A DNA stretch of 64,000 bases. Source: Chitinophaga pinensis. GTDB lineage: Bacteria; Bacteroidota; Bacteroidia; NS11-12g; UBA955. The notes below the pieces were generated by a model. That model searched no databases. It saw nothing but the letters and a program-made list of their open reading frames with translations, and was not told the DNA's origin. Positions within the stretch are counted from its first letter, which is position 1; each line of letters starts with the position of its first letter. A program made the position numbers and the translations under genes. The DNA lies in assembly GCA_945890895.1 (NCBI GenBank), contig CAMDDG010000001.1, forward strand, positions 37,705 through 101,704, in the 5' to 3' direction. Below are positions 30,653 through 40,646 of this stretch, piece by piece.

Positions 30653-31033
30653 ATGAACTTTCCAGAAAATCTGAAGTACACCAAAGACCACGAGTGGATT
30701 TTGGTTGAAGGCGACACAGCTATCATTGGTATCACTGAATTTGCTCAAGGTGAATTGGGCGACATCGTTTTCGTTGACATCTCAACTGAAGGTGAAACCC
30801 TAAATTCAGAAGATGTTTTCGGTTCTGTTGAAGCCGTTAAAACGGTAAGTGAATTGTACATGCCTGTTTCTGGCGAAGTGATCGAGGTTAACAGCGCTTT
30901 GGATTCTGCTCCCGAGTCTGTAAATAGCGATCCTTACGGAGAAGGTTGGATGATCAAAGTTAAAATGAGCGACGCTTCTCAAGTGGATGGCTTGTTAAGC
31001 GCTGATCAGTACAAAGAACTTATCGGTGCCTAA
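30653..31033 (+). CDS. gcvH: Glycine cleavage system H protein
   Basis: [25 protein letters not shown] and the lipoyl-lysine motif [18 protein letters not shown] are present. Confidence 0.9.
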
Positions 31034-31454
31034 TTGCAGCATGCAAAAAGGAATTTTTAAGAAATTAAATAAACGTCAAATCCCCGCAATCTTGTGGGGA
31101 TTTTTGATTTTTTACCTTACCATCAAACCTAAAAATACGTCCAATCATGAATTCCCATTGTGGCTAATATCCCTCAACCCAGATAAAATTGCCCATTTTG
31201 TTTTTTGGGGGATATGGTACTGGATTTATGACTTTTCATTAAGATTTCGAAATCCTCAATATCAAATTCAATTTGACTTGCCATTCTACAAGCGTTCTGA
31301 ATTTTATACCGCAGCCATGATGATTCTTTGCGGTGCATTGGTCGAATTTTTACAGTGGTATACCGATTGGGGCAGAAGTGTGGAGGCAATGGATTTTATT
31401 GCCGATACTTTAGGTGTATTATTGGCTTTTTGGTTGTTGAATCGAAAAAATTAA
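31026..31454 (+). CDS. VanZ-like small membrane protein
   Basis: It has four predicted TM segments, with [10 protein letters not shown] and the C-terminal [13 protein letters not shown]. Confidence 0.6.
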
Positions 31455-31502
31455 GCATGAAGTTGTTTATACTAATTGGTTATTAAATCGTACATATTGA
31501 TC

Positions 31503-32585
31503 ATGAAATTATCAAAACTAATTGTTGTAGTTATATTAACCGTCGCAATACAAGACGTATGCGCAAAAAACCTCGACGACGCATACCGTAATTCGATTAG
31601 AAGTAGTGAACTAAGCAGAGAAACTGGCAATAATTTTACCCATATCTTTCATGACAATCCTGTTCGTTTAATCAATGCGTTTGGTCTCACCAATAAGTTA
31701 ATAACGCCACCAGATTCTTTGTTGAGTTTCAATCCGGCTTGGGATACATTATACAAAAAGTATGGTGTTAAAGGTTGTTTTATTTTGCAGGATAAATATC
31801 GCGGTTCCATGATGACCAACGATTGGTTTATGGCTCAAACTCAAAAAACGCCCGCATCAACGTTCAAGATTCTGAATTCGTTAATTTCTTTAGAAACAGC
31901 CGCTATTCCCGATCAAGATTTTACATTAAAATGGGATAGTGTAATTCGACAATTCCCCAATTGGAATCGAGACCATGATCTACGTTCTGCGTATAAATAT
32001 TCGGTGGTATGGTATTATCAAGAATTGGCCAGAAGAGTGGGTGCTGATACGATGAAATTTTGGTTAGACAAAGTATCGTATGGAAATGCAGATACATCGG
32101 GTGGCATAGATCAGTTTTGGTTAACAGGCAATTTGAGAATAAGTCCCATCGAGCAAATTCTATTTTTACAAAAATTAGAGTCAGAGCAGCTGCCATTTTC
32201 AAAAAATACTATAACCATTGTTAAGGATATTATGATTCAGGAGCGCTCGGATGTGAAATCAATAAATTCATCCAACCAAAACAATCGCTCAAATCTAAAT
32301 TATCGCTTAAATCTCAATGAGCACTCCAAAAATAATCCACTCGCCAACCAATTTGATCACACCAACCAACGCAGTAATTATATTGTGCGTTGGAAAACCG
32401 GATGGGGCAATCAAGACGGTAAGGATATCGGTTGGATTGTTGGTTACTTGGAAAAAGGAGCGAACGTATATTATTTCGTGAATTGCATCGAAGCTGAAGT
32501 TGGTAAAACCATTTCGCAAGAGAATTTCTTGAGCGCGCGTATCGAAATTCTACAAACCATTTTGGAAGAGTACAAGACGAATTAA
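31503..32585 (+). CDS. Class D (OXA-like) beta-lactamase homologue with N-terminal extension and Asn-rich insertion
   Basis: The class D motifs appear in order: PASTFK, SVV, YGN, FWLTGNLRISPIEQILFLQKL, KTGWG. The ATG at 31503 gives the signal peptide MKLSKLIVVVILTVAIQDVCA. The ORF track begins at a TTG at 31476. Confidence 0.75.
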   Translation: MKLSKLIVVVILTVAIQDVCAKNLDDAYRNSIRSSELSRETGNNFTHIFHDNPVRLINAFGLTNKLITPPDSLLSFNPAWDTLYKKYGVKGCFILQDKYRGSMMTNDWFMAQTQKTPASTFKILNSLISLETAAIPDQDFTLKWDSVIRQFPNWNRDHDLRSAYKYSVVWYYQELARRVGADTMKFWLDKVSYGNADTSGGIDQFWLTGNLRISPIEQILFLQKLESEQLPFSKNTITIVKDIMIQERSDVKSINSSNQNNRSNLNYRLNLNEHSKNNPLANQFDHTNQRSNYIVRWKTGWGNQDGKDIGWIVGYLEKGANVYYFVNCIEAEVGKTISQENFLSARIEILQTILEEYKTN

Positions 32586-32758
32586 GATTGGTTTAATTCT
32601 CGATTTGTAGTTTATGCAAATCTTTTCAGGTCAGAATTAGGGTTCAATATTTCTTGAATTATTTGTGTATAGTTTATTTGTACACTGTACGCTCAAGCCT
32701 ATAATTTAACCTAAAAAATCTCAAATCAATCGAAATAGTATAGCTTTAACTAAACTTT

Positions 32759-33151
32759 ATGCCTAAGTTTGTAATTAAGCAGATAGAAGAAATTGTTGGA
32801 AGGGTAGCTTTCTATAAACTTGAAGTGGACGGGAAATGTCCATTTGATGAATTTTGGAAGGAAATTGAAAACGATGGAAATATGTCTAAAGAGCTAAATA
32901 CAATTCAAGCTAGGATGGGGCAAATTGCTAATATGGTTCATATACCGGGTGATAAATACCATAAACTAGAAGGCAATAATGATGAAAGGACTGAGTTTGA
33001 AATTAAAACTAAGAATCTTCGTGTATATTTATTTCATGAAACAGGAACAGGGAAAATTGTTGTGATTGGAGGAAAGAAAAAAGATCAAATGAGGGATATC
33101 GAGCAATTCAGAAATCTGAAGTCAGCGTATAAAAATTATAAGAATAGTTAA
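32759..33151 (+). CDS. RelE-superfamily toxin, HigB/Gp49-like (putative)
   Basis: The 130-aa product has the layout ...CPFDEFWKEI...KYHKLEGNNDERTEFEIKTKNLRVYLFHETGTGKIVVIGGKKKDQMRDIEQ, as in Gp49/HigB toxins. An HTH gene follows 1 nt downstream. Confidence 0.6.
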   Translation: MPKFVIKQIEEIVGRVAFYKLEVDGKCPFDEFWKEIENDGNMSKELNTIQARMGQIANMVHIPGDKYHKLEGNNDERTEFEIKTKNLRVYLFHETGTGKIVVIGGKKKDQMRDIEQFRNLKSAYKNYKNS

Positions 33152-33152
33152 A

Positions 33153-33548
33153 ATGAAAAAGTTTGAAGAATTGATAGAAACACCGGAATACTGGTTAGAA
33201 ACAATTCAAAATGAATTGTATCAGCATGTGTTTAATTATATGGAAAAAGAGAAAATCAATCAGACACAACTCGCTGAAAAACTAGGTGTGACTAAAGGAT
33301 ATCTTTCTCAAGTATTGAATGGCCATTTTAATCATAGACTTGAAAAATTAATAGAATTATCTCTAGCAATTGGCATAGCACCGGATATGGAATTTAAAAC
33401 GTTGCAACAATATCTTAAAGAACAGCAAATTATTAGAAGCGCATACGTAACAGTGAATGTACAAAATCTAATAGAAGATCAAAAAACAAATTTTATCGTA
33501 GTTCGAAATATTGAATCCAGCACCATAGTTTCTGCAATTCCCGCATAA
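33153..33548 (+). CDS. XRE-family HTH antitoxin (HigA-like) with ~50-aa C-terminal tail
   Basis: The HTH is INQTQLAEKLGVTKGYLSQVLNG. The tail contains AYVTVNV and NFIVVRNI. Its stop overlaps the next gene's start (TAATG). Confidence 0.65.
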   Translation: MKKFEELIETPEYWLETIQNELYQHVFNYMEKEKINQTQLAEKLGVTKGYLSQVLNGHFNHRLEKLIELSLAIGIAPDMEFKTLQQYLKEQQIIRSAYVTVNVQNLIEDQKTNFIVVRNIESSTIVSAIPA

Positions 33549-34000
33549 TGACGTATAATGTATTAAATAACGATCAGAATATTGAATTAGCCATTCTAAG
33601 AGTGGCTACTTTATCATTTCGTTGTAATGAATTTGTACAACTTTCAGCGGGTCCGAATAACGCTAATATCAATATAGGTGTACAAACTATGGTTGATTTG
33701 GAAAAGAATTTCGTTGCGCTAAATGTAAAGGTTACATTCACCCCCATTGAAGATCAAAATATTATTTTAATGGAAGGAGATTTTCAAACTATTTTTGGAA
33801 TCAATGATTTGGCAAGTTGGAAAAATCAACATAATGAAATTGCATTACCCGATGATGTAAACTATACCATGACGACCATTGCGCTGAGTCATGCCAGAGC
33901 ATTATTTGCTAACTTCTCAGCAAATGGACCATTTAAACATTTAATTATTCCTATTCTATCTAAAGAATGGATTGAAAGAGAATTGTTAAAAAAATTATAA
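33548..34000 (+). CDS. SecB-like chaperone candidate, third component of the cassette
   Basis: The 150-aa product was threaded by eye on E. coli SecB. LAILRVATLSFRCNE aligns with FQIQRIYTKDISFEAPN, VALNVKVTFTP..MEGDFQTIFGIN with VVLRVTVTAS..EVQQGGIFSIAG, and IALSHARALF..GPFKHLIIPILS with ILFPYARECI..GTFPQLNLAPVNF. Confidence 0.45.
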   Translation: MTYNVLNNDQNIELAILRVATLSFRCNEFVQLSAGPNNANINIGVQTMVDLEKNFVALNVKVTFTPIEDQNIILMEGDFQTIFGINDLASWKNQHNEIALPDDVNYTMTTIALSHARALFANFSANGPFKHLIIPILSKEWIERELLKKL

Positions 34001-34051
34001 GTCTAAAATATGAACTTATCAGGTCTTGAAAAACCACAGTGTAATTCAAAC

Positions 34052-34090
34052 AAAAATGCCTCTGAATTTTCAGAGGCATTTTTGTTTTTA
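34052..34090. terminator. Bidirectional terminator hairpin between the cassette and tRNA-Cys
   Basis: Perfect 15-nt arms (aaaaatgcctctgaa / ttcagaggcattttt) are followed by GTTTTT. Confidence 0.8.
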
Positions 34091-34091
34091 G

Positions 34092-34162
34092 AGGTCGGAA
34101 CCGGATTCGAACCGGTGTAGAGGGTTTTGCAGACCCGTGCCTAGCCTCTCGGCCATCCGACC
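34092..34162 (-). tRNA. tRNA-Cys (GCA)
   Basis: The reverse complement reads GGTCGGA TG GCCGAGAGGCTAGGCA C GGGT CTGCAAA ACCC ... ACCGG TTCGAAT CCGGT TCCGACC T. It has a 7-bp acceptor stem, a canonical T-loop, and an anticodon loop with GCA. It was folded by hand. Confidence 0.85.
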
Positions 34163-34243
34163 TTATTTTTAAGGAATGCAAAAATAGCTATTTTGTTCGA
34201 TTATGCAAAATCAATTTTTGAAGTTTATGGCAAAATATACCCT

Positions 34244-37512: not shown

Positions 37513-39246
37513 TTAATAAACTCGACGTCCTCCAATAAAGGTTTTCTTTACTTTGGTTTTTTTGAGTTTATCTGTTTCTACACTAAGTATATCGTGATTC
37601 AGAATTATGAAATCGGCATATTTCCCTTCTTCCAATGAACCTTTCACTTGATCCTCTCTATTGGCATAGGCCGCCCAAAGCGTCATTCCCAAAAATGCTT
37701 GTTTTCGAGTTAATGCTTGCTCGGGTTTAAACGGTGAAGCTAATGTTCCTGAAAGATCTTTACGTTCAGTGGCACTGTAAAATGTGGCAAACGGGTTAAT
37801 CGCTTCTACCGGGAAATCGGTTCCTAAAGCTAGAATTCCACTACTTTTTAACAAACTTTGATACGCATAAGCACCCGTTTTTGGGTCGTACAATTTACCA
37901 CCGTAAACACGTTGTTTTCCATCTGCACAAAGTCGATCATTTGCCCAAGACGCATCTGAAGTTGCGTGAGTAGGTTGTACACTGGGAATGATGCTGCGTT
38001 GGGAGAATATTTGTTGATCACGAGGATCCACAATTTGTGCGTGCTCAATTCTCCATCGAGCATCATAACCTTCCGGTATTAATTGTTTGAACGATTTTAG
38101 AACCAAGGCATTGGCGCTGTCGCCAATTGCATGAACGCAGACTTGGAAATTTTGTTGCAATAAGATGGAACTATATAAATTAAACTCTTCGGGCTTAATC
38201 AGGCGTAAACCGAAATGATCATGTCGATCGCAATACTGATTTTTCAAAAGAGCACCTCTGGATCCTAAAGCTCCATCAAAATAAATTTTCATGCTGTGAC
38301 AAGTTAGTCGTTCTGAGCGAGGCAGGTTATGGGTTACGATTGCTTTTAAGCTATTTTCATTTGCTGATAGCATAGTATAGAACCGCATGGGCAGTTTGTT
38401 TTCTTTCTGCAATCGGTCAATAAATTGAATTTCATTCAGTTCTAATCCTGCTTCATCCAGCGTTGTCAAACCGTATTTATAGCAATCTTTAGCGTGTTTT
38501 ACAACCGACTTTTCCAAAGTTTTTTCATCCACTGGAGGGATAAAACTCTTTATCCAATCGGCAGCATTATCGATGAAAATACCGGTAGGTTTGCCTTGTG
38601 AATCTTTAATAATTTCTCCGCCATAAATTAGGGTATCCCAATTTAGATTTAACTGTTGAAGTGCAATATCATTTACCCAAACGGCATGACCATCTACACG
38701 GCTCAAACAAACGGGTTTATTTCCAGCATTCTTTAGTTGAGCCGAATTGGGGAAATCTTTGCCCCACAAATTTTGATCCCAGCCTCTTCCAACTACCCAA
38801 GTTCGTTTGGTTTTTTTAGAGAATTTCTTGGCTAATTTTGCTATTTTTTCGGGTGAATTTGCACCGTAAACATTCAATTCGGTGCTTCCTTTGCAGTATG
38901 CCAAAAAATGACAATGCGCGTCTATCAGACCCGGATACATTACCCCTTTATGTTTTATTATTTTCGATTGGGGGTACCATTTCTGTAATTCAGATAGATT
39001 TCCCGTTTTAATGATATATCCGTTTTGAATGGCAATGGCTTCAATTTCAGAAAATCCAGTATCCCCAACAATAATTTTAATTGCTGTGTGAATTTCTATC
39101 TGATTGTTTGATAGGTTGTTGGATTGAGAAAAGCTCGAAGTTGTTGCAATAATTGCGAATAAAAATGAAAAAAACTTACTATTCTTTTGGGGGATAGGCA
39201 TAGATGATGTGTTTAAACAAACGTCTTTTGAAAAATTGTACATCAA
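37513..39246 (-). CDS. Amidohydrolase-family metallohydrolase (YtcJ-like)
   Basis: PGLIDAHCHF (the HxH metal motif), HAIGD and EHAQIV are present. The true start may be Met16 at 39201, which gives a signal peptide. Confidence 0.75.
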   Translation of the reverse strand: MMYNFSKDVCLNTSSMPIPQKNSKFFSFLFAIIATTSSFSQSNNLSNNQIEIHTAIKIIVGDTGFSEIEAIAIQNGYIIKTGNLSELQKWYPQSKIIKHKGVMYPGLIDAHCHFLAYCKGSTELNVYGANSPEKIAKLAKKFSKKTKRTWVVGRGWDQNLWGKDFPNSAQLKNAGNKPVCLSRVDGHAVWVNDIALQQLNLNWDTLIYGGEIIKDSQGKPTGIFIDNAADWIKSFIPPVDEKTLEKSVVKHAKDCYKYGLTTLDEAGLELNEIQFIDRLQKENKLPMRFYTMLSANENSLKAIVTHNLPRSERLTCHSMKIYFDGALGSRGALLKNQYCDRHDHFGLRLIKPEEFNLYSSILLQQNFQVCVHAIGDSANALVLKSFKQLIPEGYDARWRIEHAQIVDPRDQQIFSQRSIIPSVQPTHATSDASWANDRLCADGKQRVYGGKLYDPKTGAYAYQSLLKSSGILALGTDFPVEAINPFATFYSATERKDLSGTLASPFKPEQALTRKQAFLGMTLWAAYANREDQVKGSLEEGKYADFIILNHDILSVETDKLKKTKVKKTFIGGRRVY

Positions 39247-39452
39247 ATTTAACGAAAACTACATTGATTTTCTGTTGAATTTCGTTAAATTTATCAAACC
39301 AACAGAGTAAAGTTTTGTTTTAATACGATTCAATAGTAAAAATCATAAAAATTGTGTTAAACCATTTAAAGAAACAGAACCTAAATTAAATACTAAAAAC
39401 GCCCGAATAATCTATCTTAACCCGTAAACTACCTTAAATTAAAAATTGTAAA

Positions 39453-39962
39453 ATGAATACCAATCAACATAAATCAAACACAAGAAAGTACCTAGTTTTA
39501 GGAGTTGGAATTTTGATTCTAAGCGCAGCTTTCGTTGGCTATAAAATGTATTCTCAACCCAATGAATTTGTTTCAACTGGCACACCCGATTTTACCTTAA
39601 GCTCTGAAGAAATTATTAAAGAAGGTTTGGAATCGGTGGATTCCGTTTTTAACCAAAAATACGTTGGTAAAGCCATTCGATTTTCAGGAAAAATCCAGTC
39701 GGTTTCCCCAATCACCTTTTCAGGCGATACCAAAGTAAAACCAACGGGATCTGTATCTTTAAACTCTGGACAAGATGAAGTATTAGTCAATTTAGGATTT
39801 CACGAGTCTCAAAATGCAGATTTAGAAGGTCTTAAAAACGAGGTGGGTAAAACTGTTGAATTTCAGTGTGAATGCAATGGAGTTTCAAAACCATCTGATG
39901 AAGACGATTTACTTTCGGAGGTTATTTTTAGCTTTTCGAGATGTACGGTTATCAAAAAATAA
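39453..39962 (+). CDS. tRNA_anti-like OB-fold protein, membrane anchored, function unknown
   Basis: An N-terminal TM helix is present. FNQKYVGKAIRFSGKIQSV is typical of that family. Confidence 0.5.
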   Translation: MNTNQHKSNTRKYLVLGVGILILSAAFVGYKMYSQPNEFVSTGTPDFTLSSEEIIKEGLESVDSVFNQKYVGKAIRFSGKIQSVSPITFSGDTKVKPTGSVSLNSGQDEVLVNLGFHESQNADLEGLKNEVGKTVEFQCECNGVSKPSDEDDLLSEVIFSFSRCTVIKK

Positions 39963-40085
39963 ATAAGAAGTTCAAGTTCAGTTTCAATAGTACAGAAAAA
40001 ATAATAAACCTGCTTTTAGTCAAAGGTTTACAAGAATGCAAACAACATAAAGAATCAAACTTAAATACAATACAATAAAATAATT

Positions 40086-40646
40086 ATGAAAAAATACATT
40101 TCAATTTTAGTTATGGCTATGGTTTTTACTATAGGTTCAACCTTCGCTCAAACCTACAAAACCAGCACCGGACAAATCAAATTTGTTAGTGAAACAGATT
40201 TCGAAAAGTTTGAAGCAATTAACAATCAAGTATCTGCCGCTATTACCGCTCAGGGAAAATTACAATTTAAAGTACCGGTAAATTCATTTGAATTCGAAAA
40301 GAAATTGATGCAAACACATTTTCAAGAGAATTATATGGAATCGGCGACATTTCCTAATGGAACTTTTAAAGGAGATTTTAAAGATTTTCAAAATGTAAAT
40401 TTGAAGAAAGCGGGAACTTACGATGTTGTAGCTAAGGGTGCATTAGAAATTCATGGTGTATCAAAAGAAGTTGAAATTCCTGGTAAATTAATTTCAGATG
40501 GTAAAGGTGGAATCACTTTAAAAGCCAATTTCAATATTTCCTGTAAAGAATACGGAGTGAATATTCCCAAAAATGTAGTGAGCAAAGTATCGGATGTCAT
40601 TAAAATTTCAGTTAACTGCCCAGTTGCTGAGGTTCAAAAGAAATAA
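40086..40646 (+). CDS. YceI-family (polyisoprenoid-binding) protein
   Basis: It has a signal peptide. The YceI lipocalin-like pattern reads ...GQIKFVSET...F.G.F...GALEIHGVSKEVEIPG. Confidence 0.75.
   Translation: MKKYISILVMAMVFTIGSTFAQTYKTSTGQIKFVSETDFEKFEAINNQVSAAITAQGKLQFKVPVNSFEFEKKLMQTHFQENYMESATFPNGTFKGDFKDFQNVNLKKAGTYDVVAKGALEIHGVSKEVEIPGKLISDGKGGITLKANFNISCKEYGVNIPKNVVSKVSDVIKISVNCPVAEVQKK

Follow-up and report, generated by a model that had tools for sequence, protein, structure and literature searches.

Organization of the three-gene cassette

The DNA analyzed here is a stretch of 64,000 nucleotides from Chitinophaga pinensis (contig CAMDDG010000001.1 of assembly GCA_945890895.1), which is called the window in the following. 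On its forward strand, three tightly coupled open reading frames (ORFs) are located at positions 32759 to 33151 (ORF1, 130 amino acids), 33153 to 33548 (ORF2, 131 amino acids) and 33548 to 34000 (ORF3, 150 amino acids). They code for a putative HigB/Gp49-type mRNA interferase toxin of the RelE/ParE superfamily, a predicted HigA-like antitoxin with an XRE-type helix-turn-helix (HTH) domain and a C-terminal extension, and a divergent protein resembling SecB chaperones of the SecB-TA type. ORF1 and ORF2 are separated by a single nucleotide (TAA-A-ATG, 33149 to 33155), and the stop codon of ORF2 overlaps the start codon of ORF3 in the sequence TAATG (33546 to 33550). This arrangement was found exactly as given in a previous sequence-only reading of the same DNA, which had taken the three genes for a tripartite toxin-antitoxin-chaperone (TAC) module.

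The analysis supported that interpretation, and the probability of a tripartite, HigBAC-type TAC module is estimated at about 75%. The three genes follow the tricistronic TAC order on one strand, the third product has a SecB fold in its predicted structure, and the antitoxin carries a tail of a kind that is specific to the three-gene forms. Neither of the computable observations that would speak against a TAC module, a third product lacking any SecB-like fold or profile signal and third genes lying apart from toxin-antitoxin pairs in other genomes, was made.

Toxin and antitoxin genes

The start codon and the reading frame of ORF1 are kept across its homologues, and the toxin gene precedes the antitoxin gene, as in HigBA, in the window as well as in the related loci. 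The sequence-only reading had attributed a Gp49/HigB-like layout to ORF1. A Pfam search with ORF1 itself gave no match, but PF05973 (Gp49/HigB-like) was weakly matched by 11 of 36 ORF1 family members (best E value, 2.3e-3), and the predicted fold was closest to that of HigB. ORF1 also gave weak matches to the RelE/ParE model TIGR02683 (E value, 8e-4; 19.7 bits versus a cutoff of 62.85) and to the family PHROG 3445, annotated as "toxin" (E value, 1e-3), the latter over residues 23 to 125 and thus nearly the full length.

The AlphaFold2 (AF2) model of ORF1 (pLDDT, 91.7) showed a RelE-type fold (beta-alpha-alpha-beta3). Its top fold matches in the PDB were to the HigB toxin of Streptococcus pneumoniae (6af3/6af4), with TM scores of 0.57 to 0.67 and probabilities of 0.93 to 1.0 at weak Foldseek E values of 0.08 to 0.4; Vibrio cholerae HigB2, RelE2 and BrnT followed. 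S. pneumoniae HigB, the best structural match, shares 14 to 16% identity with ORF1 and, like ORF1, possesses a long C-terminal helix, which its authors called unusual among HigB toxins; its HigBA system is two-component and without a chaperone. The residues E79, E81, K83, T84, R88, Y90, G98 and K107 are invariant across the ORF1 family, and the basic and aromatic residues among them (K83, R88, Y90 and K107) are compatible with a RelE-type active site. The evidence for ORF1 as a divergent HigB/Gp49-type toxin of the RelE superfamily, a sub-threshold relative of PF05973, is weak but consistent. PDB sequences matched by ORF1 were tau proteins only, which were judged spurious, and the ORF1 family profiles gave only chance matches in the PDB, to a Cu-ATPase and ribosomal protein S2. 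The viral fold library BFVD gave a single unnamed match and nothing informative.

The sequence-only reading had placed an XRE HTH domain in the center of ORF2 and a tail of about 50 residues behind it, and both were recovered. PF01381 (HTH_3) matched residues 29 to 78 with an E value of 1.2e-8 (35.3 bits versus a cutoff of 23). The match to the HigA equivalog model TIGR02607 was weak (19.9 bits versus a cutoff of 47.7), as was that to the Y4mF antitoxin model. By its sequence, ORF2 is thus classed as an XRE-HTH antitoxin. Measured from the end of the HTH domain, the tail comprises 50 residues (residues 82 to 131; nucleotides 33396 to 33545, forward strand; KTLQQYLKEQQIIRSAYVTVNVQNLIEDQKTNFIVVRNIESSTIVSAIPA) with two beta-prone hydrophobic and aromatic segments, AYVTVNV and NFIVVRNI, around Y98 and F114, and it ends in Pro-Ala. 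In the TACs of Mycobacterium tuberculosis and Escherichia coli, a disordered, aggregation-prone C-terminal chaperone addiction region (ChAD), in which certain aromatic residues are crucial, is the reason why the antitoxin depends on the SecB-like chaperone, and a Val-Ala or Ala-Ala C terminus can mark a TAC antitoxin for ClpXP. The tail of ORF2 fits the description of a putative ChAD.

Similarity of ORF3 to SecB

ORF3 alone had no match in Pfam (E value of up to 1), NCBIfam or the PDB sequences, and it does not reach the Pfam gathering threshold for SecB. Its lone match in PHROGs (E value, 0.036) was at chance level. A word-indexed search yielded 3 close relatives and, with a 100-sequence profile, 13. 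When a profile was built from ORF3 and the 3 close relatives and used in an exhaustive HMMER search, 219 cluster representatives were assigned to the family, almost all of them about 150 amino acids long. ORF3-type proteins are labeled hypothetical in current annotation.

When the 100-sequence family profile was compared with the whole PDB, E. coli SecB was the sole match (E value, 0.023), collinear from residue 1 to about residue 90. PF02556, the Pfam SecB family, was weakly matched by 2 of the 100 family members (best E value, 2.8e-4), and hhalign aligned the family with SecB at E values of 3e-4 to 5e-4, with SHxRAL of the family on PYARE of SecB. The sequence-only reading had threaded ORF3 on E. 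coli SecB segment by segment, and a global profile alignment reproduced this. The E. coli template used had been verified to be identical to 5jtl_A, and Haemophilus influenzae SecB was also included. SHAR of ORF3 fell on the PYAR motif, together with the invariant R117 and the near-invariant H115 of the family, and G-x-F...L..P fell on RGTFPQLNLAP. At the family level, aGTxfQ was aligned with RGTFPQ and LPIvNP with LAPVNF.

The AF2 model of ORF3 (pLDDT, 85.5; pTM, 0.80), which was built on a shallow alignment of 14 sequences, comprises four antiparallel strands and two helices, a long one and a short one at the C terminus. The top 18 Foldseek matches in the PDB were all to SecB (1ozb, 1fx3 and 1qyn, from H. 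influenzae and E. coli) or to Rv1957 of M. tuberculosis (5mtw), with E values of 3e-5 to 5e-4, a probability of 1.0 and TM scores of 0.52 to 0.63. The SecB-like fold that the previous reading had expected was thus found, with a weak SecB signal from the family profile beside it. A hotdog-thioesterase fold was rejected for ORF3, since matches of this kind started only at E values above 0.02 with TM scores of about 0.3.

SecB binds SecA through D20, E24 and E77 (PMC6377645). In the global profile alignment, D20 and E24 of E. coli SecB were replaced by T21 and R25 of ORF3, while E77 was aligned with E76; these assignments depend on the alignment. ORF3 thus does not carry the full acidic cluster, and the replacement of two of its three residues argues against a role in export. 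A similar partial loss of the cluster has been described for Rv1957 (PMC6377645). As the sequence statistics are weak, the claim that ORF3 is SecB-like is based mainly on the predicted fold and on the agreement of motifs and gene context. On these grounds, ORF3 is best described as a member of a very divergent SecB-like family. The suggestion that it might be a third component of a new family was not borne out: the modeled fold is not new, and the trio is already cataloged as the defense candidate PDC-M64 (see below).

Association of the chaperone gene with the antitoxin tail

A genome scan with the ORF1 profile gave 47 loci, almost all from metagenome-assembled genomes of Bacteroidota and Ignavibacteriota. 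Every ORF of the loci was scored with the three family profiles, and the scan loci together with loci retrieved earlier made up 46 distinct loci (individual loci are given L numbers). All of these carried ORF1-family toxins, and a SecB-like gene was present in 28 and absent from 18 of them. Most of the two-gene loci had no tightly coupled third ORF.

The antitoxin tails, which were taken in all loci to begin where the HTH domain ends, differed clearly between the two forms. With a SecB-like gene, the median tail length was 60.5 amino acids (range, 38 to 84); in the two-gene loci it was 36.5 amino acids (range, 22 to 41, plus one outlier of 153 amino acids in L042; Mann-Whitney p = 6e-7). The peak hydropathy over 7 tail residues was 1.54 in the three-gene and 0.03 in the two-gene loci (p = 4e-6), and the median number of aromatic residues per tail was 4.5 and 1, respectively (p = 1.5e-6). 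A C-terminal alanine was found in 23 of the 28 antitoxins encoded beside a SecB-like gene and in only 2 of the 18 others (Fisher p = 2e-6). Tails of the kind that the sequence-only reading had interpreted as chaperone addiction extensions were thus confined to loci with a SecB-like gene.

On a neighbor-joining tree of the toxins, two-gene and three-gene forms interleave at at least six places, and because of this the association of tail and chaperone gene appears to have arisen repeatedly. The comparison supports a joint gain and loss of the SecB-like gene and of a sticky antitoxin tail, as predicted by the chaperone addiction model. Distant ORF3 homologues, which were sampled independently, were again encoded in third position, behind genes for a small protein and an HTH protein, so that the neighborhood expected by the previous reading, ORF3 homologues beside toxin/HTH-antitoxin pairs, was encountered in many genomes and contexts. 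In L057 (2151 to 3516), a gene of the ORF3 family follows an HTH antitoxin ending in ...KIGA and a small toxin-like gene outside the ORF1 family, and this locus, together with L058, suggests that the module of chaperone and tail is swapped between toxin families. The locus adjoins an IS1-like transposase.

Several observations weigh against a TAC module. ORF1 and ORF3 both remain below every curated family threshold. The sequence link between ORF3 and SecB is weak (E value, 0.023; hhalign probability, 18 to 32% with a template of one or two sequences), and the structural match is moderate (TM score, 0.52 to 0.63; root mean square deviation, about 5 Å) and comes from a 14-sequence alignment. 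The Foldseek E values between ORF1 and HigB are poor, although the TM scores are about 0.6. Five of the 28 three-gene antitoxins have no terminal alanine, and the loci used for the tail statistics are phylogenetically related, so that the p values overstate their independence. Finally, the cassette of the window sits among housekeeping genes and not in a defense island.

If ORF1 and ORF2 were an ordinary two-component HigBA-like pair, ORF3 would be a mere companion, for example, a second antitoxin, a transcriptional cofactor or an unrelated small beta-sheet protein, and the tail of ORF2 would have no link to it. The weak relationship of ORF3 to SecB and its lack of a curated family match agree with such a role, as does the existence of two-gene versions of the toxin-antitoxin pair that presumably function without ORF3. 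An incidental companion is nevertheless unlikely, given that the presence of the gene tracks the length, hydrophobicity, aromatic content and terminal alanine of the tail over at least six independent switches. The top of the fold search also contained only SecB and Rv1957, the start of ORF3 overlaps the stop codon of the antitoxin gene, and ORF3-family genes also follow HTH antitoxins that are paired with a different toxin-like gene.

Some individual loci showed further peculiarities. In L042 (3992 to 5538), an ORF1-family toxin is followed by an HTH antitoxin of 234 amino acids, the 153-residue tail of which resembles a separate domain; the third ORF (136 amino acids) is unrelated, gave no SecB-like profile match and may be a different third component. 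A proline-rich tail motif, PLNKVAEPxENYK, is common to two-gene antitoxins of a Prolixibacteraceae/Draconibacterium clade (L018, L020, L022, L023, L027 to L029, L033 and L036 to L038). L036 has this two-gene type of tail, yet by its toxin it falls among the three-gene forms, a mismatch hinting that antitoxin modules have recombined. In L013 (4387 to 4623), the antitoxin is truncated at 78 amino acids and no chaperone gene is present; its toxin is sister to that of the three-gene locus L016. Decay is also apparent among the toxin genes, several of which are divided into two ORFs (L040, L043 and L054).

Comparison with known systems

The founding TAC, HigB1-HigA1-SecB-TA of M. tuberculosis (Rv1955-Rv1956-Rv1957), has the same order of toxin, XRE-HTH antitoxin and SecB-like chaperone, and its toxin is of the HigB/Gp49 type, as is predicted for ORF1. 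Rv1956 and ORF2 both carry a C-terminal extension of 45 to 50 amino acids with two hydrophobic and aromatic stretches, which ends in Val-Ala in M. tuberculosis and in Pro-Ala here. The ORF3 model and Rv1957 (5mtw) were superimposed with TM scores of 0.56 to 0.63 at about 10% identity in the fold alignment, and both proteins retain only part of the acidic SecA-binding cluster. Unlike the M. tuberculosis system, the cassette of the window belongs to another phylum, its third product (150 amino acids) is not recognized by the Pfam SecB model, and it is known from computation.

The tricistronic design of toxin, antitoxin and SecB-TA is also shared with HigBAC of E. coli strain NT1F31, with CmdTAC/PD-T4-9 and with MqsRAC. 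In the E. coli TACs, the tail is recognized through its aromatic residues, CmdA bears a ClpXP degron of the Ala-Ala type, and the systems are associated with phage defense; for the window cassette, relatives of which are embedded in restriction-modification (RM) loci, such a role would be read from the context. The E. coli TACs are prophage borne and have chaperones that are recognizable SecB homologues. The ChAD of E. coli HigA spans 96 amino acids with four aromatic motifs, while the tail of ORF2 has 50 residues with one Tyr and one Phe. With canonical SecB (PF02556), ORF3 has in common the predicted fold, the arginine of the PYAR motif, the G-T/x-F loop and the P-V/I-N segment, but its gene is sporadic and bound to the cassette, not a housekeeping gene.

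All three proteins matched, in order, the PADLOC models of PDC-M64, for which no curated score cutoffs exist: ORF1 matched PDLC04756 (PDC-M64B) at 2.9e-6, ORF2 matched PDLC04757 at 3.3e-4, and ORF3 matched PDLC04763 (PDC-M64C) at 9.1e-10 over residues 12 to 139. The cassettes from which PDC-M64 was defined as a candidate lie within BREX, DISARM or type I RM systems; in the corresponding paper (Payne et al., bioRxiv 10.1101/2024.01.29.577857), the main text mentions neither "SecB" nor "chaperone." The candidate is listed in two-gene and three-gene forms with the first family common to both, and this dichotomy matches that seen among the 46 related loci; PDC-M64 is itself a candidate system. Among the relatives, the triad lies between HsdM and HsdS in L026, directly after HsdR in L060, beside an Eco57I/MmeI-type enzyme in L024, and between a ResIII/SWI2_SNF2 helicase gene and an N6_Mtase/Methylase_S gene in L006. 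In L034, L015 and L016 it adjoins ordinary metabolic genes. A phage defense role of the cassette is plausible because of the PDC-M64 matches, the RM-embedded relatives and the antiphage precedent of the E. coli TACs, which defend against phages by sensing phage proteins via the chaperone; the chances of such a role in the window are perhaps even. In L006 (6241 to 6726), an ORF of 161 amino acids overlaps the end of the SecB-like gene and shows by eye a GIY-YIG-like motif (KGVYIIL...LYIGKA).

The chromosomal site in a related genome

A relative with an ORF3 of 66% identity (L001) bears the triad at the identical chromosomal site, where the gene order is accD, gcvH, vanZ, class D beta-lactamase, triad, tRNA-Cys and ABC transporter. 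The flanking proteins of the two genomes are 95 to 96% identical and the triad proteins 66 to 75%. Along the segment from 31026 to 34000 of the window, compared with 3703 to 6468 of L001, identity was 82% for VanZ, about 80% for the beta-lactamase and 66 to 75% for the triad, and it rose to 96% right after tRNA-Cys. This segment is locally hypervariable or has undergone recombination at a fixed chromosomal site. An exchange of beta-lactamase and triad as one unit was considered and found weak, as the identity of 69% for the beta-lactamase is largely due to an insertion of 41 amino acids and amounts to 80% over the aligned residues.

The sequence-only reading had seen a tRNA hotspot with no integrase nearby. 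The second part was confirmed, as none of the syntenic neighbors of the cassette is an integrase, but there was no sign of an integration event: a tRNA-derived (att-like) direct repeat was looked for at the far end of the cassette and not found, and the relative has the triad at the same site. With neither an integrase nor a direct repeat of the tRNA 3' end, the cassette is a fast-diverging unit at a fixed site and not a recognizable tRNA-integrated island.

The same comparison bears on two further explanations. ORF3 could be a housekeeping SecB export chaperone that lies beside a toxin-antitoxin pair by chance, which would agree with its SecB-like fold and with a cassette that is located among housekeeping genes and has kept its place in a related genome. 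An identity of only 66% between close genomes is, however, far from the 95 to 96% of the flanking housekeeping genes; every ORF3-family gene found was the third member of a toxin-antitoxin-like cassette, in varied and often defense-related contexts, and the presence of such genes varies among close toxin relatives. The SecA-binding D20 and E24 are replaced (T21 and R25), and a 2015 survey counted only 9 SecBs from Bacteroidetes among the 3,813 cataloged. A housekeeping function is thus hardly credible.

The low GC content and the fast divergence relative to the flanks would also fit a remnant in decay or already inactive, in which the toxin has lost its activity and the genes drift at an AT-rich site without a current function, and the broken toxin genes of L040, L043 and L054 and the truncated antitoxin of L013 indicate that such decay occurs. 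For the window this is quite improbable, since its three ORFs are intact, their starts, overlaps and family-invariant residues are conserved, and alleles at 100%, 92% and 66% identity are all full-length ORFs at the locus.

Composition, signals and neighboring genes

The AT-rich islet beside tRNA-Cys noted in the previous reading was evident in the base composition. The GC content of the approximately 1.4-kb stretch from 32586 to 34000 was 31.2%, compared with 37.4% for the whole window, and only 0.24% of the same-size segments within the window were equally GC poor. The GC content at third codon positions was 0.24 to 0.28 in the three cassette ORFs and 0.34 to 0.41 in the flanking genes. The sole other place matching this AT richness, at about 39150 to 40600, contains an intergenic region, an ORF of 169 amino acids, for which the copy in the syntenic locus gave no Pfam match, and a YceI-like gene; this region is syntenic between the window and L001.

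The intergenic region upstream of ORF1 (32586 to 32758, forward strand) presumably contains the promoter and operator. In comparison with the orthologous locus L001, it is conserved only in the roughly 35 nt directly before the ATG of ORF1 (32724 to 32758; AAATAGTATAGCTTnAnCTAAACTTTATG), and this conserved stretch (AAATAGTATAGCTTTAACTAAACTTT) may be an operator or a 5'-untranslated-region element. In a scan of the upstream region for sigma-70-type promoters, which does not model Bacteroidota promoters, sites were no more common than in shuffled sequences.

Downstream of ORF3, a perfect 19-bp hairpin with a preceding A run and a following T run is located at 34048 to 34087. Its arms (34048 to 34066 and 34069 to 34087) are 19 nt each, 100% complementary and separated by 2 nt, and the stems are kept in L001. 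The hairpin had been given previously as 34052 to 34083; it is real but extends further. It was missed by the terminator scan owing to the loop rule of that scan. The hairpin is likely an intrinsic terminator that acts in both directions, serving the cassette as well as the convergent tRNA-Cys(GCA) gene, which ARAGORN located at 34091 to 34162 on the reverse strand. The previous reading had correctly placed a tRNA-Cys there, with its 3' end one position off (34092 instead of 34091). The tRNA is about 100% identical in L001 and belongs to the context of the cassette, not to its functional part.

The upstream neighbor (31476 to 32585) is a class D beta-lactamase family gene, as had been proposed, with a match to NF012161 of 239 bits, just below the cutoff of 250, and with the motifs STFK, SVV and KTG. 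Right before KTG it has a low-complexity insertion of 41 residues rich in Asn, Ser and Gln (about nucleotides 32247 to 32369), which is missing from the L001 orthologue (287 amino acids; 256 bits).

Proposed function and significance

From these data we infer the following mode of action. ORF1 would be a HigB/Gp49-like toxin of the RelE superfamily that most likely cleaves mRNA in a ribosome-dependent manner, and it would be neutralized by ORF2; the latter would probably also be the autorepressor of the operon. The tail of ORF2, with its beta-prone segments and its ssrA-like C-terminal alanine, may render the antitoxin aggregation prone, protease sensitive or both. ORF3 would be a dedicated chaperone that binds this tail and thereby maintains the antitoxin in a soluble and stable state in which it can neutralize ORF1. 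Titration of ORF3 by unfolded clients, a phage structural protein among them, would then lead to loss of the antitoxin, release of ORF1 and shutdown of translation, resulting in an abortive-infection type of phage defense or in stress-induced growth arrest. Titration by a phage structural protein has been shown for HigC of E. coli, and the other steps of the mechanism likewise have precedents in the literature. Toxicity and RNase activity of ORF1, binding of the tail by the chaperone, participation of a protease and the trigger are thus all parts of the proposed mechanism, while the gene architecture, the predicted folds and the way in which tail and chaperone gene vary together were obtained directly from the data.

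The cassette is probably a divergent, antiphage member of the TAC class. At 50% identity, the ORF3 family falls into at least 219 clusters, most of which come from Bacteroidota and Ignavibacteriota, phyla that otherwise are largely without SecB. A broader proposal, which we put forward tentatively and rate at somewhat below even odds, is that this family is a large unannotated SecB-like clade acting as phage-sensing chaperones, that PDC-M64 is a TAC abortive-infection system, that the chaperone-tail module has been gained and lost repeatedly, and that the near-universal terminal alanine points to a conserved ClpXP-type timer on the antitoxin.

TACs are a known and active topic, being chaperone-gated toxin-antitoxin modules able to sense phage proteins, and the present cassette introduces no new principle; the trio had already been flagged, free of a mechanism, as PDC-M64. 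A mechanistic reading is supplied here for this PADLOC candidate, for which the SecB-like/TAC interpretation and the co-variation of the tail were worked out in this study. The previous reading knew of no characterized TAC from Bacteroidota, and a full-text literature search likewise found no paper describing one. The TAC kind would thus be extended to Bacteroidota and Ignavibacteriota through a SecB-like family annotated as "hypothetical protein," and the two-gene and three-gene loci would constitute a natural comparative experiment that supports the chaperone addiction model beyond the few systems tested in the laboratory.

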